Shown: positions 12,216-32,000 of the stretch, in pieces
Position numbering within the stretch: position 1 is the first letter of the stretch
How the letters are laid out: each line of letters begins with the position of its first letter
Source of the DNA: Candidatus Lokiarchaeum ossiferum
GTDB lineage: Archaea; Asgardarchaeota; Lokiarchaeia; Sigyniarchaeales; Promethearchaeaceae
DNA length: 32,000 nt
Direction: 5' to 3'
Assembly: GCA_025839675.1 (NCBI GenBank)
Contig: CP104013.1
Span: 2,160,001-2,192,000 of the forward strand
The notes under the pieces: model-generated
Seen by the model: only the letters and a program-made list of their open reading frames with translations
Told to the model about the DNA's origin: nothing
Database searches by the model: none
Position numbers and translations under genes: made by a program

Positions 12216-15200
12216 TTATTTCTCCTCCTCATCTTGTTCAATCAATTCATCTGAATTAATTTCGTCTTCTCCTGTGTCCTCAATCTTATCATCTATGTCA
12301 TTTTCAGAGTCTTGCGATTTTAATTCGTCGGCTGTTTTTTGGGCTTCGTGAGATAAATTCTCAAATTCTGCTTCCTTTGCATCTTCAGAGATCTTCTGTA
12401 ATGTGCTAATGCTTTCTGATTTACTCCCTTCCCGAAAAGCCATGAAAGTAGATAAATAACTTAAAGCTAAAGCGTGATGAGTATTTAGCAATATGAGTTC
12501 AGCCTGATCCTTGAATTTCAAGTAATTATCAACCGCCTTTAGGACTAAATTACGAGTATTCTTGGGAATCTGGGCCCAATGATGTTTTAAGGCTGCAGCA
12601 AGATCTGTAGGAGACAAATTAGGAATGGACGCAATTGAGATTGGTGTCCCATTTGGCATTTCTAACAGTTTGAAACTTGGATCAGATTGCATTTGGGGAG
12701 GAGAATCATTTTTTATTATCCCTTTTTTATCACCCGTTGTCTCGATGCCAGTGGAATCGTTTTTTGGAGCAATATCAGAAGGAGTTGTGGATTTCGAAAC
12801 TCTATTTTTGATTGTTGTGACAATTTTGTCAACTGGAGTGACATTTGCTGCGGTGATTCCGATGGCTGTCCCTCCAACACTCATAAAGACTAAAACAACT
12901 GGGAGAATTGGAGGATCATTTGATTTATTTTCTTCAATTTCCACATCAACGGAAATTACATTTGAAATGGTGCTCGTACTACTCGAGTTCACTGCAACAA
13001 TGGTAAAATAATAAGACCCATTTGTTAAGCCAGATATAAAGTACGATGTCTGGGTAGTATTACCAATTGGATTTAATGATCCAATTGAAGAAATGGGTTG
13101 CGTAGACAGATAGACTTTATAGAATTCTGCTCCAGGAACCGCATTCCAGTGTAGAGTAATATTTCCATCAGTATCATAACCTATTTCATCCAGATCCGCA
13201 GGAAGCAATTCTGGAGGTGATAAAGGAGGATTTTCAACAGGTTCTATTGCGACTACAACTTGGATAGAATTAGAAGGTAGACTTTCACCAGATGCATTGA
13301 AAGCAGTAACCGCAAAGAAATAGGTCCCATTTGGATAATTAACAATATTAAATGAAAGTAATATTGTGTCGTGGAAGTTAGTTAAATTACCAACATCATC
13401 GATAGATGAATTAGATACATATAAATTGTATCCACTTACTAGGGGAACAGAAGACCAAGAAAGTGTGAAATTACCATCTGTATCGGGTGAGGTTATATCA
13501 TCTAGGATTGGAGGGGCAGGATCAAATTGAGGTTCAAAGAAATTAGTGAGATTCACAAAATATTCAGATGTGATTGGAAGATTATCAAAATTCAATCCAT
13601 AGGATATTTCTTCAGAAGAATTTAGTATACGTTGATATGGAGTATTGTACACACCATTTACCGCAATAGCTTCAGAATAGAAATCCAAGTAATTTGCCCA
13701 ACAATTTCCAATGTTCGTATTATTCCAATAATTTGTTTCTTGATTGTCATAAGTAATATTTCCCAAATAATTTCCAAAAATATGACTCCTTTGAGCCCCC
13801 ATTAGATTAAGATCATAATTTTTTGACATATTCACATAATTGAACGTAATATTGCAATCTTGGGTACTAAAAAACACAATATTAGAAAATTGTGGTTTTT
13901 CAAAATAATTCTTTGATATCAAATTATCATTTGTCCTACTTAAATACAGATTATTGGTATTTTCTGAAAATATATTAGATTCAATGGTTATATTGCTTCC
14001 ATATAATACTTCAAATCCATTTTGAGAATTTTGTGTAACATTGTTAAGTGAAAATATTCCATTTGTTAAGGCATAGCTCCATATTCCACGCGAATTGAAT
14101 TTGATTGAATTATCTTCAACCGTAAAATTTTCAGATGTAAATATATATAAACCTTGAGTAGAATGATTAGAGATTATGTTTCCAGTAATTTGACAATAAG
14201 AAGAGTAGAATAAAAGAATTCCATTGAAGCTATTATTGCATATTTTATTATTTCTTATTTCAATTTCAGTATTATCATTAATGTAAATTCCATCAGAAAA
14301 ATGATTTTCAATTCTATTATTTTCAACAATAATTCCTTCAACTGAGACTGCTTTTATTCCTTCTAATCCACCATTGGTGATATTATTCCCACAAATTGAG
14401 ATGTTAAAGGATCTATCTATATCTATTCCACTAATTCCAGATTTATCATAGCCATCATGATAATAGAAATTATTCAAATTAAAGTCATTATCTTCAATAG
14501 ACAAATCAAAAGCCGAGATTATATTTAAACCATATTTATAATTCAATGTAAAATTATTTGATATACAAGTTGTCTGATTTGAATTAAGAAGCCTCAAACC
14601 CTCTCCTTCAATAACTTCACCATCCCACTTGAACAATGAATTATTAAAAACGGTATTCGTATGAATACTAAGATCTTGACAATGGCTTGCGAGAATTCCT
14701 ATAGGTTTGTTAAAAGAAATGGTATTATTTTGAATTTGAGTATCATTGCAAGAATATAAATTTATTCCAGTTTGATTATTGGAAGTTATAATATTGGAAT
14801 CAATAAGTATTTGTGAAGAGTTAATTATTTCGAGACCACCATCAATTAAATCACCCTCTATCCAATCTTCACCATTATTTCCAAATTCACATTCAGTAAT
14901 ATTCACATTTGAACAATTATCTAAAAAAATACCTGAATGAAGAGCAGATTGAAAATTGCAGTTAAATATTTGGACATTTTGGACATTGGTTAGATTAAGA
15001 TTACTTTGGTCAGCACTATGGATATATAAATTTTGAATTAACAGATATTTGGTAGTGTTTTGAATCAGAAGGCCTACTGGGGATTTAGAAGCATTTATTT
15101 CATCAAAGGGCAATATATATGGATCTTCAAACGTTCCAATACCACCGCTAGAAATTTCATCCAAATCTACATCTCCTGTTATTATGTAGGATGCTGAGGC

Positions 15201-15350
15201 AATAGGAAAAGGAATCTCATCATTTAGACAATTCATTTTTTGGTTTTCTTTAGTGATTTCAAAATTAGAGTAATTTACAAAGCTCGAAAAAACTAAGTTA
15301 AAGCCAATAAGCACATAACAGAAATATAACATTTTTCTATATTTTGACAT
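12216..15350 (-). CDS. large cell-surface protein: signal peptide, right-handed parallel beta-helix (PbH1/NosD-like) repeats, 2x Fn3-like domains, TM anchor, cytoplasmic helical domain with acidic tail
   Basis: ATG start, 1044 aa. N-terminal signal/anchor MLYFCYVLIGFNLVFSSF. From aa ~95-535, periodic ~22-aa repeats of the form N..I..N.I..N...GI.L (nt ~13746-15068). Two tandem Fn3-like modules lie at aa ~611-700 and ~708-804 (DTDGNFTLSWSSVP..GYNLYV..GTYFFAVTAFNASGES and DTDGNITLHWNAVPGAEFYKVYL..GSYYFTIVAVNSS; nt ~12939-13520). TM segment ILPVVLVFMSVGGTAIGITAA (nt ~12843-12914). More than 30 N-x-S/T sequons by eye in the ectodomain. C-terminal tail DSENDIDDKIEDTGEDEINSDELIEQDEEEK. Confidence 0.8.
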   Translation of the reverse strand: MSKYRKMLYFCYVLIGFNLVFSSFVNYSNFEITKENQKMNCLNDEIPFPIASASYIITGDVDLDEISSGGIGTFEDPYILPFDEINASKSPVGLLIQNTTKYLLIQNLYIHSADQSNLNLTNVQNVQIFNCNFQSALHSGIFLDNCSNVNITECEFGNNGEDWIEGDLIDGGLEIINSSQILIDSNIITSNNQTGINLYSCNDTQIQNNTISFNKPIGILASHCQDLSIHTNTVFNNSLFKWDGEVIEGEGLRLLNSNQTTCISNNFTLNYKYGLNIISAFDLSIEDNDFNLNNFYYHDGYDKSGISGIDIDRSFNISICGNNITNGGLEGIKAVSVEGIIVENNRIENHFSDGIYINDNTEIEIRNNKICNNSFNGILLFYSSYCQITGNIISNHSTQGLYIFTSENFTVEDNSIKFNSRGIWSYALTNGIFSLNNVTQNSQNGFEVLYGSNITIESNIFSENTNNLYLSRTNDNLISKNYFEKPQFSNIVFFSTQDCNITFNYVNMSKNYDLNLMGAQRSHIFGNYLGNITYDNQETNYWNNTNIGNCWANYLDFYSEAIAVNGVYNTPYQRILNSSEEISYGLNFDNLPITSEYFVNLTNFFEPQFDPAPPILDDITSPDTDGNFTLSWSSVPLVSGYNLYVSNSSIDDVGNLTNFHDTILLSFNIVNYPNGTYFFAVTAFNASGESLPSNSIQVVVAIEPVENPPLSPPELLPADLDEIGYDTDGNITLHWNAVPGAEFYKVYLSTQPISSIGSLNPIGNTTQTSYFISGLTNGSYYFTIVAVNSSSTSTISNVISVDVEIEENKSNDPPILPVVLVFMSVGGTAIGITAANVTPVDKIVTTIKNRVSKSTTPSDIAPKNDSTGIETTGDKKGIIKNDSPPQMQSDPSFKLLEMPNGTPISIASIPNLSPTDLAAALKHHWAQIPKNTRNLVLKAVDNYLKFKDQAELILLNTHHALALSYLSTFMAFREGSKSESISTLQKISEDAKEAEFENLSHEAQKTADELKSQDSENDIDDKIEDTGEDEINSDELIEQDEEEK

Positions 15351-15613: not shown

Positions 15614-15958
15614 TTATATAGTATTTTTAATCACATCCAGAGTACTTTTGGCATCTGGAACCATTTTATGGAATGCTTCTAATTTTTGACAAGTATATTC
15701 TCCACAATAAGCACAATTGTTGATATTTCGGGGTAATCCACATTTTCGCATTTCACAGACAGAACAATGGCTAAAAAGAACGCCGTTTTTTGAATTACAT
15801 CCTTCGCAATTAATATCCTCAGGCTTTATTTGCTCATTAAATTCCTTACTCCACATTTCTGCAGCCTTAATTCGAGCTTCATCATCATTCACCATTGTTG
15901 CAATATATGCAGGACAATCCGAGCATACTATCCCGCAGTAACCAATTATTTTTTCCAT
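15614..15958 (-). CDS. DUF3795-family Cys-rich (metal-binding) protein
   Basis: ATG start, 114 aa. GYCGIVCSDCPAY at the N-terminus plus CEGC, CSVCEMRKC and CAYCGEYTC match the DUF3795 pattern (CG..C..C..Y ... C..C). Confidence 0.7.
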   Translation of the reverse strand: MEKIIGYCGIVCSDCPAYIATMVNDDEARIKAAEMWSKEFNEQIKPEDINCEGCNSKNGVLFSHCSVCEMRKCGLPRNINNCAYCGEYTCQKLEAFHKMVPDAKSTLDVIKNTI

Positions 15959-20638: not shown

Positions 20639-21556
20639 CTATATTTCTTTTTCGGGGTAACGTTTTTTTAAAATTTCAGAAACTCGTTGGCGCAAAGCGA
20701 AATCGGAGAGGGGAATCTTATTGCGTTTTCGACCTAATTTTTCAACACAGCGCCAAGCTGTTTCGTCAATATTTGTTTCAGACCCCCATTTTGAGACAAT
20801 TTTCTCAAATTTCCCTTTCACCAATTTTTCGGTAAAAATTTTATGAATCAAGTTTTCAGCTTCCGTTTCATGCATTTTTTCCTTCAATTGAGAAAGATAT
20901 CGAATTTTATCATCAATGAATTCAATGAGAACTTGTTCTTTAACATAATTTCCATCATAAAACATTCGGGCGGAAGATAAATGCTCAATTTTATTATCTA
21001 ATTTTGATACAGATAAAGAATTCATTTCAAGGATACCCATTCGAAGAGATTTTTGAGCATCAGTAGACATTCGGTTTAGAAGATAAGATGAAAAAGCTGG
21101 AATCCTATCTAGGATATCCTCCACACTTTCATTTTTATTTTCTTTAGAGGATTCTTGAGGATAAACTTTCTCAACGGTGGAACCTTCTTCTTTTAAAGCT
21201 AGTTCATTATTTTTTTCCACTTTTTGGGATGACGAGGCAATTACTTCGTCAATTAGATCAGTATGTGATGGTTTATGGAGCTGGATCAATTCTGCAAGTC
21301 GGTTTTCATCTAAAACATAACCTGCTGGTTTTGTTCGAACATAATAAATTACATGGTTTTTTGTTAATTCCGCTTTGATTGTATTCACAGTCCATTTTTG
21401 AGGCAGTTGCGTCTCTTTTAATTTATCTAAAAGCGCTTTTGCGGGAGAAATTTTTGGATTACTTTGGAAAATTGCTTTAAGTTCAGCGATAAAAGGTTCA
21501 GAAATATACAATGGTGACTTTGATTTATGATTTGAATTGTTTTGAGTCTTCGACAT
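20639..21556 (-). CDS. hypothetical protein (305 aa), first gene of the minus-strand run; no family recognised
   Basis: ATG at 21556, 13-nt gap to the PglZ-like gene downstream. Charged, helical-looking sequence with a central low-complexity E/K/S region. The coding call rests on ORF length and operon context only. Confidence 0.5.
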   Translation of the reverse strand: MSKTQNNSNHKSKSPLYISEPFIAELKAIFQSNPKISPAKALLDKLKETQLPQKWTVNTIKAELTKNHVIYYVRTKPAGYVLDENRLAELIQLHKPSHTDLIDEVIASSSQKVEKNNELALKEEGSTVEKVYPQESSKENKNESVEDILDRIPAFSSYLLNRMSTDAQKSLRMGILEMNSLSVSKLDNKIEHLSSARMFYDGNYVKEQVLIEFIDDKIRYLSQLKEKMHETEAENLIHKIFTEKLVKGKFEKIVSKWGSETNIDETAWRCVEKLGRKRNKIPLSDFALRQRVSEILKKRYPEKEI

Positions 21557-23722
21557 GTTTTAAGCCATCGTAAATTTTTTTTTTTTTTCACAGAACAAAT
21601 TTTGCTTGAGTTTAATAATCCACAAAATCAAAAAAATTTTCTTAAAAAGCAATATGGAATATTTCTTAAAAGGACACTATTTGACATTCAGAACATAGAA
21701 AAAATTAGAGGAAAAAGAACTTTTTTTCAAATCTTGGTGAAATATTTGGGAGAACAACATCAGAAAGAAGAAATCGAAGCCGTGTATATTTCGATATTGT
21801 CTAATAATACACATCCATTTGAACAAGCAGTCAGTCGAAGTGATGTACGCTCCCAAAGCGATAGTTATGATATTGCTCGCCCTCATCAAGGAGCAGATCG
21901 CCGAATTGAACGAGCATTAAAATCGATCCAACGGAACCATCTTCCAAAATTATTGCCTTTATTAGGAGAAGCGGGAGCGGGGAAAACTCATTATTATTGG
22001 ATCTTAAAGGATCAGGAAACGCCTTCATATGAAGTTTTAGAATCAGATGAAAACCCTTGGGCAATCATTTATGTTCCTTCACCCCCAATGGCTCTTAATA
22101 TACCCCTTCATATATTAACATGTCTAATTGACGATCAAGGAGAAGATTTGATTGTTTCCACTGCCTTAAATCTTTTCAAGAAATTTAAAACTGATATTAA
22201 CTCTTCTTTTGAAAATGTGAAAAACCAAATTGTAAATTACTATGGAGGGCTACATTCCGATGTAATACGAGTATTACTACAATTCATTTGGCCAGGAATA
22301 ACCCAAGAAGAAAAAATATTATCAAAACGATGGTTATTTGCAGATAACTTAACTAAGGAAGAACTGACAAAGCTAAAGGTTAAAAATAATATTGAAAATG
22401 ATGATGTCGTCTTAAATTTACTCCATATCATTGATGAATACTCTGGAAGAACTTTAATTTACTTCTTTGATGAGATGGAATTAATATACCGAATGTTTGG
22501 AGCAGAAAGTGAAATAAAACTGTGGGAGATAATTAAAAAACTATTTAATGAATCCCGTAACTCTCTCTTTCTCACCACATGTTTGTTAGATGTTTGGGAG
22601 AGAGTAACAAATAATTTAGACTCAAGCGTGATTTCACGATTTGAACCTGAAATACAGCTTCAATCCTTCAATCAAGAGGAATGTCACTTACTTTTTGCAT
22701 CTCTAATGGAACATTTTTGGAAGCAATATTATTTGGCAAATCCTCCCAATCCATATTTCCCTCTTTCTGAAAATATAATCAACTTCATCTATACTAAATC
22801 AAAAGGCAATCCACGCCAAATTATCAAGCTTATTTCTAAAATTTTAGATCAAATTATATTGGAAGAAATTGAATATGCTGGGATAGATGAAGGAGCAGAT
22901 CCTCAAGAAGTATTACAATTTGTTGCCAAATATTCTGAACAAGAAGAATCAAACAAGTTTTCAGAACCCACTCCGGAAGATTTTCGAGTTTCTCAACAAA
23001 ATACTCGAGATGAGGTCATTGAGATTAATCAACTACTTCCTCAAGTGCTCCAACCCAAAAATCGTAAAGCGAAATTGAGTGTAAATGATGAAGAATATTT
23101 TGTTGAGATTAATCCAACATCTATTATATCGGCTTTAATGTCTTTATTAAATAAAATTGATGAAAAATTGTTCAAAAATGTATCTAATTTTCTCAAATTA
23201 ACAATTAATTCATCCTATGACCTCCAAGGTGTGAGAAAAAATTTAGCGATACTTTTAGAGCTCCCCCAGAAAAACAAAAAAATTGGAATAGATATTCCTG
23301 CCATAAATAAATTGGGAAACTTATCTAAAGCAAAGGCATATTATTCTGTTTTAGACTGCACAAATGCAATTAATCGAGGAAAATTCGATCGCATGATTTT
23401 GCTTCTCCCAGATGGGTTAATTGATAGAACAGGACAAATTATATCAACCCTACAAGATTATAGTGATGATTTTCTTCTTATAGAATTTTCTGAGGATGAT
23501 GCGCTGAAATTAATTGAAGCTACTGCTCCTATTAATGTGTCTACCTTAAACGAAATAGAACAATTGAAAATTTTTCTAAATTTTTGCTTCCCAAACCAAC
23601 GGATACTTTCTTCATTGGAAAATCTTCTAAAAAATGAAAGAAAACAAAAATCATCCCCCCCGGATGATTTAGATGAAAAAATTGACGATTTAAGAAATTT
23701 TCTATTGAAATTAAATAAATAG
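21542..23722 (+). CDS. P-loop NTPase (AAA+/ORC-like or DUF2791/BrxD-like ATPase core) with an unassigned ~280-aa C-terminal region; start codon uncertain
   Basis: Walker A LLGEAGAGKTH (aa 141-150 of the maximal ORF), Walker B TLIYFFDEMELI, and a lid-like KSKGNPRQIIKLISKIL. The segment RWLFADNLTKEELTKLKVKNNIENDDVVLNLLHIIDEYSG upstream of Walker B resembles, from memory, the pattern in DUF2791/archaeal-ATPase families. There is no in-frame ATG before aa 183, which lies past Walker A. A non-ATG start is therefore required: TTG 21542, TTG 21602, TTG 21734 or GTG 21737. Confidence 0.7.
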   Translation: MSLRHVLSHRKFFFFFTEQILLEFNNPQNQKNFLKKQYGIFLKRTLFDIQNIEKIRGKRTFFQILVKYLGEQHQKEEIEAVYISILSNNTHPFEQAVSRSDVRSQSDSYDIARPHQGADRRIERALKSIQRNHLPKLLPLLGEAGAGKTHYYWILKDQETPSYEVLESDENPWAIIYVPSPPMALNIPLHILTCLIDDQGEDLIVSTALNLFKKFKTDINSSFENVKNQIVNYYGGLHSDVIRVLLQFIWPGITQEEKILSKRWLFADNLTKEELTKLKVKNNIENDDVVLNLLHIIDEYSGRTLIYFFDEMELIYRMFGAESEIKLWEIIKKLFNESRNSLFLTTCLLDVWERVTNNLDSSVISRFEPEIQLQSFNQEECHLLFASLMEHFWKQYYLANPPNPYFPLSENIINFIYTKSKGNPRQIIKLISKILDQIILEEIEYAGIDEGADPQEVLQFVAKYSEQEESNKFSEPTPEDFRVSQQNTRDEVIEINQLLPQVLQPKNRKAKLSVNDEEYFVEINPTSIISALMSLLNKIDEKLFKNVSNFLKLTINSSYDLQGVRKNLAILLELPQKNKKIGIDIPAINKLGNLSKAKAYYSVLDCTNAINRGKFDRMILLLPDGLIDRTGQIISTLQDYSDDFLLIEFSEDDALKLIEATAPINVSTLNEIEQLKIFLNFCFPNQRILSSLENLLKNERKQKSSPPDDLDEKIDDLRNFLLKLNK
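21575..21588. repeat. T14 homopolymer tract in the divergent region between the 305-aa gene and the P-loop ATPase gene
   Basis: Direct reading gives cgtaaaTTTTTTTTTTTTTTcacag. The tract lies 19-32 nt from the minus-strand ATG (21556). It also lies inside the maximal plus-strand ORF (codons KFFFFFT). Confidence 0.9.
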
Positions 23723-23726
23723 CTCC

Positions 23727-24266
23727 TTAATTGGGATGTAAATATTTAATTAATCGATATGTTTTTTTACCTTGGCATTCAGGACATACCACTTTTGATC
23801 CCTTAGGCTTAGTCTTCTTCCCAACATCTGTAATAATGGAAGCCCATTCAAAACCACAATCTTGACAACCGAATCCTGAGAATTTAGTTTTGCTATCAAC
23901 ATCAGTAAGTTCTGGAACCAGTTTTGAATTTTTTTTTATAGTGTTCTCTTGATTTTTTTTAGATTTGGTTGATGAAGGGACATTATCTAAGGGATGAGAT
24001 TGAATTGAAATAGCATAACCTTCAATAAAGGCTTTTGCGAGCTTTTCATATGCCCGACTTACAATCCGAGAGTATGTAGTTTGACTGATGGCCATTTCTT
24101 CAGCAGCATCAGTTTGTTTTTTGTGATCATAATTTCTTAAACGTAAAGCTTCAAATTCTTCGGCTGTAAGAAAAATTTTTTCAGCATTCTTTATTCCTTC
24201 GGGCCGATAATTGCTCGATTTAGGACGAATACTAGAAATATTTCTATATTTGTGCGGTCTACCCAT
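23727..24266 (-). CDS. DUF134 (UPF0251, COG1342) putative DNA-binding protein with a C-terminal zinc ribbon
   Basis: ATG start, 179 aa. Canonical DUF134 N-terminus MGRPHKYRNISS...YRPEG....IFLTAEEFEALRLRNYDHKKQTDAAEEMAISQTTYSRIVSRAYEKLAKAFIEG (HTH-like). Then a K/N/S-rich linker, then CQDCGFEW...VCPECQGKKTY (C-x2-C ... C-x2-C). Confidence 0.75.
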   Translation of the reverse strand: MGRPHKYRNISSIRPKSSNYRPEGIKNAEKIFLTAEEFEALRLRNYDHKKQTDAAEEMAISQTTYSRIVSRAYEKLAKAFIEGYAISIQSHPLDNVPSSTKSKKNQENTIKKNSKLVPELTDVDSKTKFSGFGCQDCGFEWASIITDVGKKTKPKGSKVVCPECQGKKTYRLIKYLHPN

Positions 24267-24285
24267 TAGTTTTCCCTCTATATTA

Positions 24286-24321
24286 ATCTACAAAAATGAA
24301 TATTTATGATAAATTGTAGAT
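24286..24321. promoter_or_regulatory. 8-bp inverted repeat ATCTACAA-N20-TTGTAGAT bracketing a TATA-like box upstream of the DUF134 gene (candidate operator)
   Basis: Arms at 24286-24293 and 24314-24321. The spacer contains AATATTTAT (24299-24307; minus strand ATAAATATT) about 37 nt upstream of the ATG at 24266. A GAGGG SD-like element sits between them. A third half-site-like TTGTAGCT is at 24503-24510. Confidence 0.3.
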
Positions 24322-24567
24322 ATACAAAAAGTGGTTTTTCGTATATAAGAATCTTTCGACTATATATACAAATTTATCGTTTGAATCGATCATCCCAAAT
24401 AAATTAGGTTCAAATCTAAAAAAAAAAGGAAAAATATTCACTCCATTTTTAATTTACCCGTTTCACAACCATATTGGTTTTCTTAAATATAATAAATATT
24501 TTTTGTAGCTATAAAATTGTTTTTTTTTGAATTATAAATCGAAAAATTTGAAATTGAGTTATAGAAA

Positions 24568-24575
24568 ACTTTATA
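24568..24575 (+). promoter_or_regulatory. TATA-like box (ACTTTATA) for the plus-strand NifX-like/MinD-ferredoxin gene run
   Basis: The sequence is aaaACTTTATAcagtgggattacc. The predicted transcription start is near 24598, giving a ~28-nt leader with AGGT (24612-24615) before the ATG at 24627. Prediction only. Confidence 0.3.
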
Positions 24576-24626
24576 CAGTGGGATTACCTTTATGTGAATA
24601 GGTATTCGTATAGGTTTGAAAAAAAA

Positions 24627-25013
24627 ATGGAAAATCAAATTATTGCAATTCCAAGTCAAATACCTGGAGGCTTAGACGCTCAGGTAGACACACGATTTGG
24701 ACGATGCAGAGTATTCACAATCGTCAATATAGTGAATAATGCCATCGGAACAGTTAAAATTGTTCAAAATGGAGGAAACAACGCTATGGGTGGCGCAGGG
24801 CCTGTTGCAGCCCAAACTATAGCCCAAGAAAAAGCAAAATGTGTTATAGGTGGAAATTATGGTCCAAATGCTGCAAATGCATTGTCACAAGCGGGAATTG
24901 CAACTTATGGAACAAAAAATGGCACTGTTAAAGAAATTATTGATCTTTTTCTCGCAAATTCACTACCTTTGATCTCTGGATCGAATGTTGGATCCCATAA
25001 TGGTATGAATTAG
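24627..25013 (+). CDS. NifX/NifB-C-terminal-like protein (dinitrogenase FeMo-cofactor-binding domain family PF02579, COG1433), copy 1
   Basis: MENQIIAIPSQIPGGLDAQVDTRFGRCRVFTIVNI...GGAGPVAAQTIAQEKAKCVIGGNYGPNAANALSQAGIATY fits the family pattern (I.A.......l...FG.a..F.i.. ; G.G..aa..L...g...vi.g..Gp.a...L...gI). The track start at 24594 is GTG. I prefer the ATG at 24627. Confidence 0.8.
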   Translation: MENQIIAIPSQIPGGLDAQVDTRFGRCRVFTIVNIVNNAIGTVKIVQNGGNNAMGGAGPVAAQTIAQEKAKCVIGGNYGPNAANALSQAGIATYGTKNGTVKEIIDLFLANSLPLISGSNVGSHNGMN

Positions 25014-25048
25014 TCTTTTTTAATGGAAATTTTCAATCAGGTAGAACA

Positions 25049-25960
25049 ATGACAAAGACAATAGCCATCACAGGCGGAAAAGGGGGAACTGGTAAAACCC
25101 TCATTGCAACAAATCTTGCGATAAATTTAGCTAATAATGGATATAAAACACTTTTTATTGATTGTGATGTCGAAAATCCAAACTCTAATATTCTTTTGGG
25201 TAAGTCTCTTACGACTCCAGATGTAGAAAAGGAATCGATCGCGATATATAAACCGAGTTTTTTACAAGAATCATGCACTAAATGTGGAATATGCCGTAGT
25301 GCATGCTATCGCCATGCAATTTTGCAATTTCCGGACCATTTCCCTTCAGTTCTGGAACATATGTGTTCAGGATGCAAAACATGTCAAAAAGTATGCCCAA
25401 ACGGTGCCATCATTACTGATTCACGTATCATAGGAAGTCAATATTTTCTTAAGCAAGCATATTCAAACTTAGATCTTCTCGTAGGCGAGTTAAATCCCTC
25501 TGAAGCAATATCAGTAAAGATAGTGGAAGCTCTTTTCCACTACTCGGAGAAATTAAGTGAAAAAGCGAACTATGACTTCATAATAATTGATACTGCACCA
25601 GGAGCACATTGCGATGTAGAGAAATCTATTAGTGATGCCGATCTAGTTATAGCAGTCACTGAACCAACTCCCTTTGGGGAACACGATTTAAACAGAATTT
25701 TAGATCTATTGGATGTAGTTGGACAAAAAGCAGATATTATCCTAAATAGATCTAACCTAACCCACTATCAAGAACCTCTCCGTTCTCTCGCAAAAACTAG
25801 GAACTGCAACATAATTGGGGAAATTCCCGTAGATAGTGTAGTGATTGAAGATTATGCTAAAGGATTACCATTTGTTTTAGATACTCGTAATTTCCCAGCA
25901 AAATCTGCGTTTAATTTGATTTATTCCAAAATATTGGAAGGAATAACAATGGAGTTGTAA
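25049..25960 (+). CDS. MinD/ParA-superfamily P-loop ATPase with an inserted 2x[4Fe-4S] ferredoxin domain (COG1149), paralogue 1
   Basis: AGGT SD, ATG start, 303 aa. Deviant Walker A with signature Lys (ITGGKGGTGKT). Insert with CTKCGICRSACY and CSGCKTCQKVCP. Walker B/switch II FIIIDTAPGAHCD, with Cys seven residues after the Asp. Confidence 0.85.
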   Translation: MTKTIAITGGKGGTGKTLIATNLAINLANNGYKTLFIDCDVENPNSNILLGKSLTTPDVEKESIAIYKPSFLQESCTKCGICRSACYRHAILQFPDHFPSVLEHMCSGCKTCQKVCPNGAIITDSRIIGSQYFLKQAYSNLDLLVGELNPSEAISVKIVEALFHYSEKLSEKANYDFIIIDTAPGAHCDVEKSISDADLVIAVTEPTPFGEHDLNRILDLLDVVGQKADIILNRSNLTHYQEPLRSLAKTRNCNIIGEIPVDSVVIEDYAKGLPFVLDTRNFPAKSAFNLIYSKILEGITMEL

Positions 25961-25962
25961 TT

Positions 25963-26922
25963 ATGCCAGAGAATTATTACAAATTAGGAATTGTTTCAGG
26001 AAAGGGAGGAGTTGGAAAAACTTCTATTACAGCATCGCTTGCTTGTTCATTAAGTGATCAAGGTATAAATCTTATTGCAGCCGATACGGATGTGGATGCT
26101 CCAAACCTCCAAATTCTTTTTCAAACTAATGGAGTACCAAAGAAATCCTTTACTCTGCAGACTACAGAAAAGGCGACTTTTATTGCTTCATCATGTTCTC
26201 ATTGTAAAAGATGCATTTCAGAAGAATTTTGTTCTTTCGGAGCACTATCATGGGACGAAAAATGTTTAGAACCAATTATTGACGTTGTAGCATGTGAAGG
26301 TTGCCGTGCTTGCTCACTACTTTGCCCAGAAAAAAGTTTTGAAATAAATCCAGTAGATAGTGGAAATGTAGTTCATTTAGAAGGAGAATTTGGATTTGAT
26401 GTAATTACAGGCCAAACAATCTTGGGATCCCAAACTTCTGGAAAGCTAGTCACGGAATTAAAGAAATATGCGGGAAAAATTGCAGATTTAGAAGAAAAAG
26501 ATCTCTTAATCATCGATGGCCCCCCTGGGATAGGATGCCCTGTAATTGCAGCAGTAGCTAATTTAGACTACTGCATCGTTGTCATTGAACCAAGTTCCGC
26601 GGCATTACATGATGCAAAGCGTGTGATAGAAGTCATTTCACAGTTTAAAATACCTATTGGTATTATCATTAACAAATCAGATATGTTTCCTGATGGCTAT
26701 CAATTAATATCTCAATACATTAAGGATTATCAACTTGAATTGCTAGGGGATATTCCTTTAGACGATAATTGGCCTCAATCGATAGCTCAAGGATTACCAA
26801 TTATTAAATTTGATCCAAAGGGGATACCGGCAGAAAGACTGCGGGTGATCTCAACTAAATTATTGAAAAAAATTAAATTAAAAACAAAAATAATAGGAGT
26901 AGAAAAAAATGAAAAGATATAG
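25963..26922 (+). CDS. MinD/ParA-superfamily P-loop ATPase with an inserted 2x[4Fe-4S] ferredoxin domain (COG1149), paralogue 2
   Basis: GGAG SD, ATG 2 nt after the previous stop, 319 aa. Walker A VSGKGGVGKT. Insert with CSHCKRCISEEFC (atypical spacing) and CEGCRACSLLCP. Walker B/switch II LLIIDGPPGIGCP. Confidence 0.85.
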   Translation: MPENYYKLGIVSGKGGVGKTSITASLACSLSDQGINLIAADTDVDAPNLQILFQTNGVPKKSFTLQTTEKATFIASSCSHCKRCISEEFCSFGALSWDEKCLEPIIDVVACEGCRACSLLCPEKSFEINPVDSGNVVHLEGEFGFDVITGQTILGSQTSGKLVTELKKYAGKIADLEEKDLLIIDGPPGIGCPVIAAVANLDYCIVVIEPSSAALHDAKRVIEVISQFKIPIGIIINKSDMFPDGYQLISQYIKDYQLELLGDIPLDDNWPQSIAQGLPIIKFDPKGIPAERLRVISTKLLKKIKLKTKIIGVEKNEKI

Positions 26923-27301
26923 TATAGCCACGGATAATGGACAAGTTTCGCAACATTTTGGAAGATGCCCAACTTATACTTTTATCGATGTGGAAAATAG
27001 CACAGTTGTAAAAAAAACGACGGTTCAAAACCCAGGCCATCAAGTTGGAACTATTCCAAAATTTCTCCATGAAAATTCTGTAAATGTCATTATTGCAGGA
27101 GGGATGGGGAGAAGAGCCATAGATTTTTTTAATCAATACAATATTCAACCTATATTGGGCGCATCGGGCACTATTGAAAATATAGTCGACGTAATTTTAT
27201 CCGGCGAATTGAAAAGTGGAGATAGTACTTGTGTTCCCAGAAAAGGGAAGGATTACGGTCTCCCTAAAGAAGAATGCGATGAATCTCACCACGAACATTA
27301 A
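26909..27301 (+). CDS. NifX-like protein (PF02579/COG1433), copy 2, with a Cys/His-rich C-terminal tail
   Basis: AGGAG SD. The ATG overlaps the previous gene by 14 nt. MKRYSIATDNGQVSQHFGRCPTYTFIDV...NPGHQVGTIPKFLHENSVNVIIAGGMGRRAIDFFNQYNIQPILG. Tail: STCVPRKGKDYGLPKEECDESHHEH. Confidence 0.8.
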   Translation: MKRYSIATDNGQVSQHFGRCPTYTFIDVENSTVVKKTTVQNPGHQVGTIPKFLHENSVNVIIAGGMGRRAIDFFNQYNIQPILGASGTIENIVDVILSGELKSGDSTCVPRKGKDYGLPKEECDESHHEH

Positions 27302-27433
27302 CTTCAATATTTTTTATTTTATTCTTCCTTTTTCCCTTTTTCCATCTTGTTAATTACATTCAAATGATATTCTATAATCGTAATCTTCTTATTTTGCCAA
27401 TTGTTTGAATAGATATTCAGAAAAGTGATTACT

Positions 27434-27802
27434 ATGAGTTTATTAAAAGTAGCATTTCCATCCACAGTTGAAGGATTAACTGGGGAACTAGTCCCTCATT
27501 TTGGCCACACCCCAGCCTTCACTATTTTAGAATATGATGAAGAATCCAAGGAGGTATCGAATGTTGAAGTACTTCAGAACGCACCACATCAACAGGGAGG
27601 CTGCATGCAGCCCGTAATGTTCTTGAAAAATGCAGGTGTTAATTCCGTCGTTTTAGGTGGGATTGGACAAAGGCCTTTGATGGGATTCTTACAAGTTGGT
27701 GTCGAACCTTATGCAGGAATTCAAGGAACAGTTAAAGAGAATTTTGAAGCCTTTGTGGCTGAAAAACTGCAAAAAATGGCTAAAGCTTCATGTAATCATT
27801 AA
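27434..27802 (+). CDS. NifX-like protein (PF02579/COG1433), copy 3
   Basis: MSLLKVAFPSTVEGLTGELVPHFGHTPAFTILEYD...APHQQGGCMQPVMFLKNAGVNSVVLGGIGQRPLMGFLQVGVEPYAG. The track start at 27425 is GTG. I prefer the ATG at 27434. A 123-nt T-rich gap separates it from copy 2, so it may have its own promoter. Confidence 0.75.
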   Translation: MSLLKVAFPSTVEGLTGELVPHFGHTPAFTILEYDEESKEVSNVEVLQNAPHQQGGCMQPVMFLKNAGVNSVVLGGIGQRPLMGFLQVGVEPYAGIQGTVKENFEAFVAEKLQKMAKASCNH

Positions 27803-27809
27803 GCTAAAA

Positions 27810-27820
27810 TTTTTTTTTTT
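27810..27820 (+). terminator. oligo-T run (T11) 8 nt after the stop of NifX-like copy 3, putative terminator
   Basis: The sequence is taagctaaaaTTTTTTTTTTTattctttga. It shows the same T-run + ATTCTT arrangement seen after 10330 and 27301. Confidence 0.35.
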
Positions 27821-27946
27821 ATTCTTTGATATTATCTTTGAAAAATAAGCTTCTTCGCAAGGTTTATTATTTTAATATTTAAAAAAGTTAATAAATTTCT
27901 GAATCCAGATTTAATCATTGAGTGGATTGTATATATCTGGTGAAAA

Positions 27947-28414
27947 TTGGAATTGCCAAAAAAGAAATTAAGGGAAAGTTATGATAAAGACCTTTTCCAA
28001 AAACAAAACTTGTTTTATAGAAATGTCCGTAATGAAAACGATGTTGATCAGCCAATCACGATAACCTTGGAAGAATACAGCGCTTTAAGATTAAATAGCT
28101 ATATACATAAGGATGTAAAAAAGGGAAGGCAAGCACTATGTGCAAAAGAGTTCAACGTAAGTCAGCCTACTTTTAGCCGAATATTAAAAAGTGGAACCGA
28201 AAAAATAGTTCAAGCGTTAGTGGAAGAAAGGAACTTTCAAATAGCTGGAGGTAATATTGGATATAAATTAAATGGGTGGGGTTGCTGGAATTGTAATTGG
28301 GAAAGTGAAGTTGAAGAGCAGGATGAGTCCCTCCCAAAACCTGATAAATGTCCAAAATGTAGCTCCAAAAAATTATTCCAATTGAAAAAAATTGTTACCA
28401 AATGGAGTACTTAA
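27947..28414 (+). CDS. divergent DUF134-like putative DNA-binding protein with a C-terminal zinc ribbon; TTG start
   Basis: The core ITLEEYSALRLNSYIHKD...QALCAKEFNVSQPTFSRILKSGTEKIVQALVEERNFQIAGG is colinear with the DUF134 core of 23727..24266 (LTAEEFEALRLRNYDHK..TDAAEEMAISQTTYSRIVSRAYEKLAKAFIEG). The C-terminal ribbon is CWNCNWE...CPKCSSKK. A stop at 27941-27943 sits in frame just upstream and there is no in-frame ATG, so TTG 27947 is the only plausible start. Confidence 0.6.
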   Translation: MELPKKKLRESYDKDLFQKQNLFYRNVRNENDVDQPITITLEEYSALRLNSYIHKDVKKGRQALCAKEFNVSQPTFSRILKSGTEKIVQALVEERNFQIAGGNIGYKLNGWGCWNCNWESEVEEQDESLPKPDKCPKCSSKKLFQLKKIVTKWST

Positions 28415-28435: not shown

Positions 28436-29155
28436 ATGAAAAATTGCCCCCCACACTTTTTTCGAATCCACCCAAGCAGTTTAATTGCATTTCTAATCAT
28501 TTTCATTAATGCTGGATTGAATTTATTTTATCGAGGATATAACTTAAGTTTTTTTACAATATTACTTGTAGCTTCGATTTCAACAGTGCTAGCAATTTTG
28601 AGTTTAATTTTACATGAGCTAATTCACGCAAGTATAGGAAAAGCTCGTTCAATCCCAGTTCAAAATATCATAGTTAACTTTTTGGGAGGATTTACTGTCT
28701 TTCAAGAAGAGACCATTGAAGCAAAAGATGAATTCTGGATAACATTAGGAGGACCCTTATCCAATGCAATACTCGGAATACTACTATATTTACCAAATTG
28801 GTTAGAAGAGTCGACCACAATGTCATTATACTTTCAATTTATGTTGAGCTATTGTGCACTCATCAACTTTCTTTATGCAGGATTTAATCTTCTTCCCATA
28901 TACCCCTATGATGGTGGCCGAATTTTGCGTTCAATTCTTTGGATGAGAAAGAAAGAATACAATAATGCTACAATTAAGTCAATATATGTTGGATATTATA
29001 CCGGAATTGTCGTAGTTGCATTAGGATTCTATTTTTTGATTGAAAAGTTTTTTCCATTCTATAATTTCGGAATAATAATAATTGGATTTTACTTCATATC
29101 CGTTTCTCGCACTTATATCAAACAAATTAATGAATTCAATTCAACTAAAACATAA
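28436..29155 (+). CDS. M50-family site-2 protease (intramembrane zinc metalloprotease)
   Basis: GAAGGA SD, ATG 21 nt after the previous stop, 239 aa, polytopic. HExxH in a TM helix (LHELIHA) and the second signature FNLLPIYPYDGGRIL (N-x-x-P-x-x-x-x-D-G). Confidence 0.8.
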   Translation: MKNCPPHFFRIHPSSLIAFLIIFINAGLNLFYRGYNLSFFTILLVASISTVLAILSLILHELIHASIGKARSIPVQNIIVNFLGGFTVFQEETIEAKDEFWITLGGPLSNAILGILLYLPNWLEESTTMSLYFQFMLSYCALINFLYAGFNLLPIYPYDGGRILRSILWMRKKEYNNATIKSIYVGYYTGIVVVALGFYFLIEKFFPFYNFGIIIIGFYFISVSRTYIKQINEFNSTKT

Positions 29156-29786: not shown

Positions 29787-32000
29787 TTAAAATCCCATCG
29801 ACTTGGGTTTAGCAGAAAAAAAACCATAGTGGAAAGTTCCCAGAAAATCGATCCCACATAATTCCCACACATCTACATTAGATTTTGGATCACTTAGCAT
29901 GTCACCGATTAATTTTAGATTTTCTTTTGCACAATACATGTTTTTCAATTTTAAATGAATATACTTGGAATAGAATGGAAGCTGCACCCACTTAAAATTT
30001 TTGGGATTATTAGATAATTCAGGAACTTTAAACTTATGAGGACGAAAACCCCAGAATGCCAATTTATCAACACTTAAGGGCAGTTTTTTTCCATTTTTAA
30101 AATTGAAATATGAAAAGCTAAATTTGCGAGTAGAAGGATTATAAGAAATGTCTCCAAGTATCTTGATACTCTCTTTATGGTTACTAAATTCTAATCCATC
30201 AACAACTAAATCGGAATGTGAAATGGCGAACAATACACAGAATTTAGACTTTAAGTGCTGATTTGTGGAGGAACCATTCATTAACTTTGAAGTTAGTTTG
30301 TAGATGAAATCGGGCAAAATAGAATGAGAAATGATTATAATATTCTTAATTTTAATTAATAGATGTAAGATTGCTTGTATTTTCGAGATGGAATTCTCTT
30401 CAATCAGATCCAAGGATGGAGAAAGCATCAAAACAAAATGAGAAATATTATTAATATCTCCTTGCATTAACCGAATTTTTTTTGATAGTTTGAAATCTTG
30501 GAAAGCAATTTCAGAAGAACTACCATCGAAATCAGTGATATCTTCAAGATTGGTGATTTTTACATTATCTCCATCAGATAAGAAAAATCCATTTTGGTTT
30601 AAAATTTGATGAATGTGCTCATCCCACCTATCAATGCTCTTGAAATTTACCTCTTCTACCGAAAACGGAGACACAACCCTATCTTTTTTTTTATGTTGAA
30701 GAGGCAATTCATATCGAACTTGATCTTTCGATTTTCGTTCATGGGCCAGATCACTTAAACTAATTTTATTTACTGGGGTATAATGAAAGTCATTTGATTC
30801 AATATTCCATTTAAAACAGGGAAAAATAGTACCAATTAACCAATTACAAGTCGATAGAATGGCCGTCGGACTTGTATCGAAAACAATCCACTTTCTTTCC
30901 AATTTTTCAGCGACCATCGCTGTCGTTCCAGAACCACTTGTAGGATCAAGCACTAAATCCCCCGGACGTGTGGTCATAGCCATACATCTTTGAATCACTT
31001 TTGGGTTAGTATGTACGGTGTAATGTTTTTTAGCTGCAAAAGTACTTGTAGATGTATCAGTCCATAGATTTGTTAATATCATTGCAGGAAAATCAGATTC
31101 ATAACGTTTTCCATATAGTTTATTGTTAATTATTTGCACTCGATCCAGCTCAATCAACTTTTGAATAGCTGTTTTCTCCCAGCGCCATTCAAATCCATTT
31201 GGAGAAGCGATTTTTTTACCTTGATATTCAATTATGAATTGTCTTTCAAAACGATTTGGCTTCAGAGGATTGATGCGTTTAACTAATTCTTGAGGTTTAA
31301 AGCGGATAATTTCTCCATTTTTGGGATTTTTAGAAGAATAAGTGAATGTTTTGGCGATTTTATCCATAGGACGCTCAGTGAAAAGATTTCGTCGAAAAAC
31401 TTGTTTTTTATCTTTCGCATACCATAGAAGATAATCTGCGATGCCTTGAACCTTATTGGTACTTATAGCCGTTCTAAATGTTATTTGACTGACGCAATTT
31501 TCGATGCCAAAAATTTCATCAAGTAAACAGCGAACATAATGTAAGTTTTTTTCTCCAATTTGAACAAAAATCGAACCACTACTGGTTAATAATTCCCGAA
31601 AAAGAACGAATCTTACTCTGAGATAGGCTAAGTAAGAACTTAGACCATTTTTCCAAGTATCCAGATAACCTTCAGATTGAGATGACCCTGAAGTGTGTTT
31701 TGCATCAAAATTTATTCCAAAAGGAGGATCCATATAAATCATCTGAACTTTAGAACCATATCCCGCCTTTAAAAGAGCATTCATCCCAATTAATGAATCT
31801 CCGTGAATTATTCGATTATGCCAAACTTCATCTTCATCTCCCAAAAATTTGATGTATTTAGTGGTTTCGAATTCATTTTCAAATTTCTCCTTTCCAAGAA
31901 TCATCTTTAAATTGCTTAAAATTTTCTTTGAATCGAAAAAATTAATCGAATTTAATTTGGCTTCGGGGACAGAAAAAGAAGTTTGAGGTTTATCCTGCCA
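29787..32000 (-). CDS. beta-class (motif IV before motif I) N6-adenine/N4-cytosine DNA methyltransferase, PF01555-type, with an unassigned ~355-aa C-terminal half; probably 5'-truncated by the window end
   Basis: NRIIHGDSLIGMNALL, then motif IV IYMDPPFGINF (aa 57-66 from the ATG at 31904). LLWYAKDK follows, then motif I GDLVLDPTSGSGTTAMVAEKLERKWIVFD (aa ~315-343). The frame stays open for all 32 codons from 31905 to 32000 (WQDKPQTSFSVPEAKLNSINFFDSKKILSNLK). The true start is therefore either the ATG at 31904 or beyond the window. Confidence 0.85.
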   Translation of the reverse strand, partial: WQDKPQTSFSVPEAKLNSINFFDSKKILSNLKMILGKEKFENEFETTKYIKFLGDEDEVWHNRIIHGDSLIGMNALLKAGYGSKVQMIYMDPPFGINFDAKHTSGSSQSEGYLDTWKNGLSSYLAYLRVRFVLFRELLTSSGSIFVQIGEKNLHYVRCLLDEIFGIENCVSQITFRTAISTNKVQGIADYLLWYAKDKKQVFRRNLFTERPMDKIAKTFTYSSKNPKNGEIIRFKPQELVKRINPLKPNRFERQFIIEYQGKKIASPNGFEWRWEKTAIQKLIELDRVQIINNKLYGKRYESDFPAMILTNLWTDTSTSTFAAKKHYTVHTNPKVIQRCMAMTTRPGDLVLDPTSGSGTTAMVAEKLERKWIVFDTSPTAILSTCNWLIGTIFPCFKWNIESNDFHYTPVNKISLSDLAHERKSKDQVRYELPLQHKKKDRVVSPFSVEEVNFKSIDRWDEHIHQILNQNGFFLSDGDNVKITNLEDITDFDGSSSEIAFQDFKLSKKIRLMQGDINNISHFVLMLSPSLDLIEENSISKIQAILHLLIKIKNIIIISHSILPDFIYKLTSKLMNGSSTNQHLKSKFCVLFAISHSDLVVDGLEFSNHKESIKILGDISYNPSTRKFSFSYFNFKNGKKLPLSVDKLAFWGFRPHKFKVPELSNNPKNFKWVQLPFYSKYIHLKLKNMYCAKENLKLIGDMLSDPKSNVDVWELCGIDFLGTFHYGFFSAKPKSMGF

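Follow-up and report, generated by a model that had tools for sequence, protein, structure and literature searches.

We analyzed a 32-kb window of the genome of Candidatus Lokiarchaeum ossiferum (below, "the window" means this whole stretch), in which seven adjacent genes encode two ATPases with inserted ferredoxin domains, three small NifX-like proteins, and two proteins combining a DUF134 domain with a zinc ribbon. Our results strongly support the assignment of this locus to the orange protein (ORP) system described in Desulfovibrio; it is the Lokiarchaeum ossiferum version of a known system and not a system of a new kind. Equally strong support was obtained for the correspondence, in both parts and order, of its core operon—NifX-1, ATPase 1, ATPase 2, and NifX-2—to Orp8, Orp3, Orp4, and the Di-Nase domain of Orp9. 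The ORP system occurs widely among strict anaerobes. Its expression, high wherever it was quantified, is turned on only when the redox potential is very low, and its function has been unsolved for more than 15 years. A complete and compact version of it exists in a cultured Asgard archaeon. Taken as a whole, the data are best explained by the ORP identity combined with an ATP-gated, electron-delivering heterodimer and with DUF134-dependent regulation at a palindromic box, and we hold this combined explanation with moderate confidence. The features of the locus were as follows (coordinates in the window, strand, description, and basis of detection).

23727–24266, minus strand: DUF134a, consisting of a helix-turn-helix (HTH), a disordered basic linker, and a C-terminal Cys4 zinc ribbon (CQDC...CPEC); Pfam
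24267–24626, no strand: divergent intergenic region, AT-rich, with TATA-like elements, holding ORP box 1; sequence
24595–24608, no strand: ORP box 1, TGAATAGGTATTCG, with one mismatch to the palindrome TGAATANNTATTCA, candidate operator; pattern match
24627–25013, plus strand: NifX-like 1 (NifX-1), of the orange-protein (ORP/Orp8) type, first gene of the core operon; Pfam PF02579
25049–25960, plus strand: ATPase 1, one member of the Orp3/Orp4-type pair, signature PGAHCDVE; Pfam
25963–26922, plus strand: ATPase 2, second member of the Orp3/Orp4-type pair, signature PGIGCPVI; Pfam
26909–27301, plus strand: NifX-like 2 (NifX-2), stand-alone Di-Nase type, last gene of the core operon; Pfam PF02579
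27310–27321, plus strand: oligo-T run, candidate archaeal terminator of the core operon; sequence, role deduced
27406–27419, no strand: ORP box 2, TGAATAGATATTCA, perfect palindrome, candidate operator; pattern match
27434–27802, plus strand: NifX-like 3 (NifX-3; GGCMQP, C-terminal SCNH), preceded by a separate box and probably transcribed from a separate promoter; Pfam PF02579
27810–27821, plus strand: oligo-T run after NifX-3; sequence
27947–28414, plus strand: DUF134b, consisting of a diverged HTH and a Cys4 zinc ribbon (CWNC...CPKC), TTG start; Pfam

All seven open reading frames (ORFs) and all motifs listed in a first-pass annotation of this DNA were found at the coordinates claimed there, and its domain families were all confirmed by Pfam, which had been named beforehand as a check. 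Its observations are thus confirmed, and its interpretation is partly supported. The 2-nt gap between the ATPase genes (25961–25962) and the 14-nt overlap of ATPase 2 with NifX-2 (26909–26922) were given correctly. Nitrogen fixation had been excluded, and rightly so: the window has no nitrogenase context, and neither nifHDK nor nifEN nor the radical S-adenosylmethionine (SAM) protein NifB was detected among its ORFs of at least 100 aa by Pfam scans.

The strongest synteny evidence for the ORP identity is the EAL2_808p replicon of Peptoclostridium acidaminophilum, where genes annotated by NCBI as DUF134, NifB/NifX, ATP-binding, ATP-binding, and MrpORP follow each other on the same strand (EAL2_RS11320-11300). 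The ATPases encoded there, arranged in the same order, were reciprocal best matches to ATPase 1 and ATPase 2 and shared 28–33% identity with the window ATPases. They share with the window proteins the Walker A motif, both ferredoxin motifs, and the Cys located seven residues after the Walker-B Asp, hereafter the switch-II Cys (there DCPPGSAC and DGSPGIGC). Unlike the window, P. acidaminophilum has a fused MrpORP and one DUF134 gene, not two, and its DUF134 protein lacks the Cys4 zinc ribbon, carrying instead an N-terminal VCC and a C-terminal C...C-x2-C.

The three NifX-like proteins belonged to PF02579 (Nitro_FeMo-Co): NifX-1, NifX-2, and NifX-3 scored 66.2, 76.8, and 71.4 bits, respectively, against a cutoff of 26.3 (E-values of 3.3e-18, 1.6e-21, and 8.2e-20). 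In PDB sequence searches, NifX-1 matched the orange protein of D. gigas (2wfb, E 3e-12) over nearly its full length, residues 4–120 aligning with residues 5–119, as well as MTH1175 (1eo1, E 1.5e-12). NifX-2 and NifX-3 had no match to 2wfb in these searches; NifX-2 matched TM1816 (1t3v/1o13, E 2.5e-19) and NifX-3 matched PH0822 (2yx6, E 1e-9). The NCBIfam MrpORP model was matched below its cutoff by all three NifX-like proteins and both ATPases; the best match to the C-terminal part was that of NifX-2, which aligned with model positions 265–364 (95.8 bits, cutoff 450) and shared 41.5% identity with the corresponding domain of MrpORP from P. acidaminophilum. NifX-2 is, by these matches, a homologue of the "Di-Nase" domain found at the C-terminus of MrpORP/Orp9, encoded here as a stand-alone protein. 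It carries HFGRC near the N-terminus and a C...C-DESHHEH tail, and the C-terminal features of copies 2 and 3 agreed with their earlier description.

Both ATPases contained CbiA/ParA and Fer4 domains according to Pfam; ATPase 1 is named "Iron-sulfur cluster carrier protein" by NCBI, and ATPase 2 was 29% identical to it. The deviant Walker A motif with the signature Lys was located at residue 10 of ATPase 1 (GKGGTGKT) and residue 13 of ATPase 2 (GKGGVGKT). Each protein had two ferredoxin motifs, as previously listed. In ATPase 1 these were CTKCGICRSAC and CSGCKTCQKVC, and the inserted 2x[4Fe-4S] domain spanned Cys76–116; in ATPase 2 the first motif, CSHCKRCISEEFC, had C-x2-C-x2-C-x5-C spacing, and the second was CEGCRACSLLC. 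The C-x5-C spacing, kept in 59 of 74 ATPase-2 orthologues, is a conserved lineage trait.

In D. vulgaris, the ORP complex consists of Orp3, Orp4, Orp5, Orp8 (an orange-protein homologue), and Orp9, which is MrpORP (PMC6345978); in strain Hildenborough the system, encoded in the orp1 and orp2 operons, comprises Orp3/DVU2103, Orp4/DVU2104, and also Orp7, with OrpR/DVU2106 as the regulator. Orp3 and Orp4, MinD-like paralogues of ~31 kDa, both contain a pair of [4Fe-4S] ferredoxin motifs and carry an amphipathic helix at the C-terminus. Purification of Orp3-His also recovers Orp4 and Orp8; as an apo complex, these three proteins receive Fe-S clusters from holo-MrpORP, and the role of the ORP complex is "still unclear" (PMC6345978). 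The Mo-Cu-S cluster of the orange protein and the redox-dependent regulation by OrpR have been published (PMC6345978, PMC8359166): OrpR, sensing redox potential with its [4Fe-4S] cluster, allows orp expression at about −425 mV and shuts it off near −280 mV (PMC8359166). In A. fulgidus, AF2378-AF2380 are constitutively highly expressed and were tied to orp genes by the authors (PMC3949148). The first-pass annotation had considered the neighbourhood to be without an experimentally defined function; this is true of its physiological function, but the neighbourhood itself has already been studied as the Desulfovibrio ORP cluster.

Like the Desulfovibrio system, the locus encodes two adjacent MinD-like paralogues that both bear a pair of [4Fe-4S] ferredoxin motifs, several small PF02579 proteins (one of them homologous to the orange protein), and a homologue of the MrpORP C-terminal domain. 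It is likewise restricted to anaerobes and has a locus-specific regulator, here a candidate, at palindromic sites before operons. Unlike the two divergent operons of Desulfovibrio, the NifX-ATPase-ATPase-NifX genes are located on one strand; the Mrp/NBP35 P-loop domain is absent from the window, and the Di-Nase domain is encoded by a separate gene, NifX-2. The operator sequence is new, and two DUF134+zinc-ribbon proteins are present instead of sigma-54/OrpR. Pfam scans revealed no gene for a sigma-54/OrpR enhancer-binding protein in the window; to our knowledge, sigma-54 is absent from archaea.

Two points weigh against the ORP assignment. No Mrp/NBP35 gene was found by Pfam scans anywhere in the 32-kb window. 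The orthology of the ATPases to Orp3/Orp4 fits their architecture, the synteny, the MrpORP-containing clostridial locus, and the published description, and was reached through these rather than through a tree or an alignment with DVU2103/DVU2104.

Scanning a single genome for each species yielded 80 related loci, which were annotated with profiles made from the window proteins. Most of them were from Asgard archaea; Hadarchaeota, Bathyarchaeia, Thermoproteota, Methanomethylicia, and Micrarchaeota were also represented. The adjacent ATPase pair was present in 74 of the 80 loci, and a NifX-like gene was found directly upstream of ATPase 1 in 64 of the 67 where that region was visible. Co-occurrence of these families, set beforehand as a test, was thus far beyond chance. 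For 45 loci, 3 kb of flanking sequence was visible at either end; 29 of these contained a DUF134 gene, and 9, 15, and 21 had one, two, and three NifX-like genes, respectively; some related loci have more than three. In 25 of 56 Asgard loci an unfused Mrp/NBP35 ATPase (CPHC motif) was encoded divergently upstream, a placement resembling the divergent operons of Desulfovibrio. The order of the two ATPase genes is common to archaea and bacteria, and conservation of the core across Asgard archaea, other anaerobic archaea, and some anaerobic bacteria is strongly supported.

One contig labelled Candidatus Deferrimicrobium sp. (L067, DATKTP010000221.1) encoded an ATPase 71% identical to Helarchaeota proteins along with a Helarchaeota-type short DUF134; no Desulfovibrio protein was among the matches listed for this ATPase in the homology search. 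The contig was not counted as bacterial evidence because it is probably mis-binned or the result of a very recent transfer.

Residue conservation was analyzed in 150 ATPases, 75 per lineage. Both the Asp of switch I and that of Walker B were invariant, as were the eight ferredoxin Cys, and the Walker A residues were unchanged wherever the N-terminus was present. As the first-pass annotation had stated, a Cys follows the Walker-B Asp at a distance of seven residues in both window proteins (DTAPGAHC, Asp181 and Cys188; DGPPGIGC, Asp185 and Cys192). In the ATPase-1 lineage, Cys188 was kept in 75 of 75 orthologues together with the eight ferredoxin Cys; in the ATPase-2 lineage the switch-II Cys was kept in 69 of 75, giving 144 of 150 overall. 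The lineages have distinct signatures around this residue, PGAHCDVE and PGIGCPVI. No other conserved Cys was found outside the ferredoxin insert in the 150 sequences. The non-insert Cys of the window proteins were only Cys39, Cys188, and Cys253 in ATPase 1 and only Cys28, Cys101, Cys192, and Cys204 in ATPase 2, and a CxxC of the Mrp/NBP35/ApbC type was not present outside the insert in either of them. The conservation of the switch-II Cys and of the two-paralogue layout across archaea and bacteria makes specific residues and a heterodimer model accessible to testing.

Loci L073, L075, L076, L077, and L081 (Hadarchaeota and Methanomethylicia) encoded a ~300-aa NifX-domain protein upstream of the ATPase pair, and in their ATPase-2-type proteins the switch-II Cys is naturally replaced by Asn.

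Several results count against an electron-delivering role of the ATPases. The switch-II Cys is not universally required because it is replaced by Asn in six ATPase-2 orthologues, mostly from Hadarchaeota and relatives. The modelled ATPase fold is nearest to MinD/FleN/FlhG rather than to NifH: the AlphaFold2 (AF2) model of ATPase 1, with a predicted local distance difference test score (pLDDT) of 90.1 and a predicted TM-score (pTM) of 0.86, had MinD, FleN, and FlhG as its best Foldseek matches (E ~1e-13), while HypB, ApbC, and NifH ranked lower (NifH 2nip, E 3e-10, TMq 0.63). The alignment of the C-terminal half with NifH was weak (hhalign probability 34%, E 4e-4). Finally, the authors of the Desulfovibrio work favour a link of the ORP complex to cell division (PMC6345978).

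The main rival explanation develops these points into a MinD/FlhG-like positioning or cell-division role, in which the ATPases would be membrane-associated ATP-dependent dimers with Fe-S clusters as a redox switch and NifX-like proteins as accessories. Besides the structural matches, the best PDB sequence matches of the ATPases were also MinD, and the deviant Walker A with the signature Lys is shared with MinD. ATPase 2 ends in a cationic amphipathic stretch, KLLKKIKLKTK (net charge +6), possibly a MinD-like C-terminal helix; its hydrophobic moment of 0.47 is comparable to the 0.45 of a MinD membrane-targeting peptide, a helix score that is only suggestive. Such a role has been tentatively proposed for the Desulfovibrio ORP complex by its authors. 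The amphipathic helix reported for Orp3/Orp4 and the polar localization of MrpORP in D. vulgaris (PMC6345978), as well as the morphological defects of OrpR mutants (PMC8359166), point in the same direction. However, no MinC/MinE-like or division genes were found in the window or in the conserved neighbourhood; the invariant partners are metal-cluster carriers and Mrp/NBP35 Fe-S carriers, not MinC/MinE or flagellar proteins, and a positioning role leaves them unexplained. Unlike MinD/FlhG/FleN, the ATPases have a conserved switch-II Cys and a ~70-residue ferredoxin insert, absent from all solved structures matched in PDB sequence and Foldseek searches, and its eight invariant Cys together with the switch-II Cys are hard to square with a mere switch. 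The score for NCBIfam minD_arch was 86.5 bits (cutoff 201.75), and those for ApbC and MrpORP were far below the cutoffs. We regard a positioning role as improbable.

Comparison with NifH revealed both similarities and differences. The A. vinelandii NifH sequence used for this purpose was identical to the PDB entry at 289 of 290 positions. The full-length hhalign alignment covered only the first 51 columns because the insert breaks it, and the C-terminal half was re-run with the insert removed; Asp181...Cys188 then fell on Asp125...Cys132, in agreement with the spacing previously proposed. The Cys188/Cys132 register is secure, as there is no indel between Walker B and Cys. The ATPases thus resemble NifH in the SIMIBI fold, the deviant Walker A with the signature Lys, and the switch-II Cys at +7 from the Walker-B Asp; NifH and its relatives also work with cluster carriers of the NifX/NafY type in cofactor maturation, and NifX-like partners are present here too. 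Profile matches were limited: the NifH/BchL/CfbC profile PF00142 was matched only partially (residues 5–53 of ATPase 1; residues 189–303 of ATPase 2 on profile positions 131–247), and the NCBIfam nifH score was 24.6 bits against a cutoff of 394. Differences from NifH include a fold and sequence closer to MinD, a paralogous pair proposed as a heterodimer instead of a homodimer, and no NifDK/NifEN-like partner.

The first-pass annotation had proposed that the ATPases form a NifH-like heterodimer with a [4Fe-4S] cluster bridging them through the post-Walker-B Cys, in series with the ferredoxin clusters. The idea of paired paralogues stands, being supported by the gene order shared between archaea and bacteria and by the co-purification of Orp3 with Orp4 (PMC6345978). 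The bridging cluster is favoured by the register of the Cys with NifH Cys132 and its retention in 144 of 150 sequences, by NifH being a structural match, and by both ATPases scoring above the Pfam cutoff for Fer4_NifH (31.0 and 27.9 bits, cutoff 25). Nevertheless, a NifH-type bridging [4Fe-4S] cluster needs two Cys per subunit, and the loop with NifH Cys97 falls on a Cys-free segment of the ATPases in the hhalign alignment. In the Cys97 column, ATPase 1 has Ile and most of its orthologues have Arg; most orthologues of ATPase 2 have Thr. Because only one conserved Cys per subunit is available outside the insert, that is, two thiolates per dimer, the NifH-type four-Cys bridging cluster is unsupported as stated. 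His187 is conserved only in the ATPase-1 lineage, and the six ATPase-2 orthologues lack the Cys. Such a cluster is hence unlikely, and the bridging idea would need other ligands or a different cluster type. Unlike NifH/BchL/CfbC, the ATPases have a whole 2x[4Fe-4S] ferredoxin domain inserted in the region of NifH Cys97; this position is compatible with an electron-transfer module on the same face of the dimer.

In the explanation that we prefer, the two paralogous MinD-fold ATPases would form an ATP-dependent heterodimer, each subunit carrying two [4Fe-4S] clusters in the inserted ferredoxin domain and the switch-II Cys in register with NifH Cys132. Binding and hydrolysis of ATP would gate the delivery of low-potential electrons, which might travel by way of a metal site formed by both switch-II Cys at the interface. 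They would be received by a metal-sulfur cluster on the small NifX-like carriers, and the outcome would be the reductive maturation or hand-over of an Fe-S or heterometal-S cluster, by analogy with the maturase role of NifH with NifEN/NifX. If the system operates as in Desulfovibrio, Fe-S clusters would be supplied by a Mrp-type carrier and the proteins made only under strongly reducing conditions. Fe-S storage or sulfide/metal buffering, with NifX-like proteins acting as Pyrococcus IssA (thioferrate) and the ATPases loading and unloading them, draws on the membership of IssA in PF02579 (PMC6345978), the presence of one to three NifX-like genes per locus and of more in some, and the expression of the Desulfovibrio system at very low, sulfide-poised redox potential (PMC8359166), but is very unlikely, as IssA holds thioferrate by a cationic C-terminal tail (PMC6345978) while the tail of NifX-2 is acidic/His-rich and that of NifX-3 very short, and NifX-1 is closest to the orange protein, the holder of a discrete Mo-Cu-S cluster.

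DUF134a (NCBI "hypothetical protein NEF87_001799") matched Pfam DUF134 (PF02001) with 73.8 bits (E 1.7e-20) and DUF134b with 35.5 bits (E 1.5e-8), both above the cutoff of 27; the two proteins were 28% identical. In the AF2 model of DUF134a, the HTH (residues 20–90) had block-mean pLDDT values of 86–96, the linker (residues 95–125) was below 50, and a small ribbon followed. The HTH superposed on those of sigma-70 region 4 and DeoR with a root-mean-square deviation of 0.5–0.6 Å (Foldseek), while no solved structure matched DUF134a by sequence in the PDB search. The four ribbon Cys were invariant in 12 sequences, comprising both window copies and ten Asgard relatives; the ribbon is lacking in Hadarchaeota, Bathyarchaeia, Helarchaeota, and bacterial DUF134 proteins. 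A second DUF134 copy in the same downstream position was found only in the closest relatives (L004, L006, and L084-L086). An exact-word literature search returned no functional study of DUF134.

A metagenome scan was carried out with the zinc-ribbon type of DUF134, the broad DUF134 alignment being too diverse, and returned 80 loci: the gene was located next to a Cys-rich Fe-S protein in 46, in an ORP-type context in 18, and in neither in 16. The earlier proposal of DUF134 regulators agrees with the HTH fold, which supports a DNA-binding regulator, but these contexts show that the family is not dedicated to the cluster. In the Cys-rich-protein loci, found within L087-L163, a paralogous group of zinc-ribbon DUF134 genes is followed by one to three same-strand copies of a ~365-aa protein (e.g., L090:5956-9021 and L097:5956-8704). 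This protein has CYCRH..., CNCCKCCCG, and a C-terminal 2x[4Fe-4S] domain, and only the ferredoxin part matched Pfam. TTTTGAATA half-sites were repeated upstream in these loci.

At least 12 Asgard DUF134+zinc-ribbon genes look N-terminally truncated to a gene caller using ATG/GTG/TTG, for example L069:9857-10159(-), L031:9905-10207(-), and L052:9884-10186(-). A conserved N-terminus, I-G-R-R-R-H-R-R-W-V, is present in frame, beginning from an ATA right after a stop codon and 5–6 nt after a conserved GGTGA. Thus, ATA is probably the start codon of these genes, judging from the sequence.

Comparison across loci revealed an inverted repeat upstream of the core operon in 30–34 of 64 loci, with a maximum of 6 in shuffles. 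Its pattern is TGAATA-NN-TATTCA, and the wider 20-bp consensus is TTATGAATAATTATTCATAA. A repeat search of the divergent intergenic region as a single sequence yielded only low-complexity AT-rich pairs. The pattern had exactly 2 matches in the window against 0.38 expected: box 1 ends 18 nt before ATG 24627 of NifX-1, and box 2 ends 14 nt before ATG 27434 of NifX-3, with TATA-like elements ~30 nt upstream of both. In all fetched loci, 223 box sites were counted, compared with 18 in shuffled sequence; 118 of them were just upstream of NifX-like genes, 16 near Mrp/NBP35, and 10 near DUF134, and 28 further target genes belonged to one family, DUF5320.

The boxes before NifX-1 and NifX-3 are most likely bound by the DUF134+zinc-ribbon proteins, which would serve as regulators of the locus in place of the bacterial sigma-54 activator OrpR. 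They would act as repressors: a repressor site is favoured because the boxes are located between the TATA-like element and the start codon. The Cys4 module would be the candidate metal or redox sensor, by analogy with OrpR. The box was present in 29 of 29 genome loci with a zinc-ribbon DUF134 and in 1 of 13 with a ribbon-less one (Fisher p 1e-9, the loci not being phylogenetically independent). In the metagenome set, the strict palindrome was found in only 17 of 80 loci and was largely absent from the 46 non-ORP ones. In those 46, the 150 nt preceding the DUF134 gene showed a 7-fold enrichment of the half-site TTGAATA, in constant orientation (p 4e-11); this enrichment lends moderate support to the recognition of TGAATA-type sites by DUF134+zinc-ribbon proteins. 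Three facts stand against DUF134 control of the box: its co-occurrence with DUF134 is confounded by phylogeny, the box being an Asgard trait; 27 loci have a box with no DUF134 in view; and no box is present near either DUF134 gene in the window, where a search with 2 mismatches added nothing above chance.

A broader version is possible and is put forward only tentatively: DUF134+zinc-ribbon proteins would be a family of archaeal Cys4-based metal- or redox-sensing repressors acting on the 20-bp TTATGAATAATTATTCATAA, defining an Asgard-wide "ORP regulon" (NifX-like proteins, Mrp/NBP35, DUF5320, and ferredoxin-insert ATPases) as a functional analogue of OrpR, and the two ATPases would represent a separate class of SIMIBI heterodimers that deliver electrons in an ATP-dependent manner and have the ferredoxin domain in place of the NifH Cys97 loop. 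The palindrome lets the archaeal ORP regulon be read from sequence alone, and together with the DUF134 link it provides a first regulatory handle on two large families, DUF134 and DUF5320. In the literature searched, we did not find the near-universal switch-II Cys, the cross-domain association with DUF134, or the Asgard ORP box with its DUF5320 targets.

DUF5320 proteins, the second commonest family right after a box, have a Gly/Arg-rich N-terminus and a C-terminal coiled coil (Pfam E 1.8e-21; e.g., L022:6915-7340(+), L014:6962-7378(+), and L158:9760-10176(-)). A DUF5320 gene also adjoins a bacterial NifX-ATPase-ATPase locus of Chloroflexota (L165:2948-3211(-)), and none was found in the window. 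The box also precedes a gene of the Prismane/CO-dehydrogenase family in L012:1204-3552(-) and L055:1-1443(-) (Pfam E 4.6e-32). There are hints that the box regulon extends to other Fe-S enzymes.

The boxes also bear on gene starts and transcription units. The ORFs of NifX-1 and NifX-3 are open from GTG 24594 and GTG 27425, respectively. ATG 24627 and ATG 27434 are the likely starts, correcting the longer ORFs, because the GTG versions swallow or abut the conserved promoter-proximal palindrome; the ATG of NifX-3 was also chosen by the gene caller on another assembly. For DUF134b, the need for a TTG start was borne out: only TTG 27947 or TTG 27953 is possible, since an in-frame TGA is located at 27941-43, and GGTGA (27939–27943) precedes the TTG. 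Archaeal RNA polymerase terminates at oligo-T. The plus-strand run had been described as operon-like, but it is probably not one operon because oligo-T runs follow NifX-2 and NifX-3 and separate boxes precede NifX-1 and NifX-3. This arrangement suggests three transcription units, namely NifX-1 to NifX-2, NifX-3 alone, and DUF134b.

No known RNA family, including the Moco/Wco (molybdenum/tungsten cofactor) riboswitch, was detected in the window by Rfam, and no tRNAs were found there. Three further genes of metalloprotein character are located upstream of the cluster in the window, with no link to it found; they encode a protein of 282 aa ending in a 2x[4Fe-4S] domain (10518–11366, minus strand), a 1044-aa NosD/beta-helix protein with an fn3 domain (12216–15350, minus strand), and a DUF3795 protein (15614–15958, minus strand). 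The flanking genes for a BrxC-like ATPase, a DNA methylase, and an M50 peptidase are not conserved beside the cluster in relatives, and a connection with it was rejected on this ground. These flanking genes encode a 726-aa P-loop protein with a weak match to BrxC/BrxD (21542–23722, plus strand; E 2.7e-4, below the cutoff), an M50 peptidase beginning 22 nt after DUF134b (28436–29155, plus strand), and an N6/N4 DNA methylase (29787–31904, minus strand; E 7e-30).

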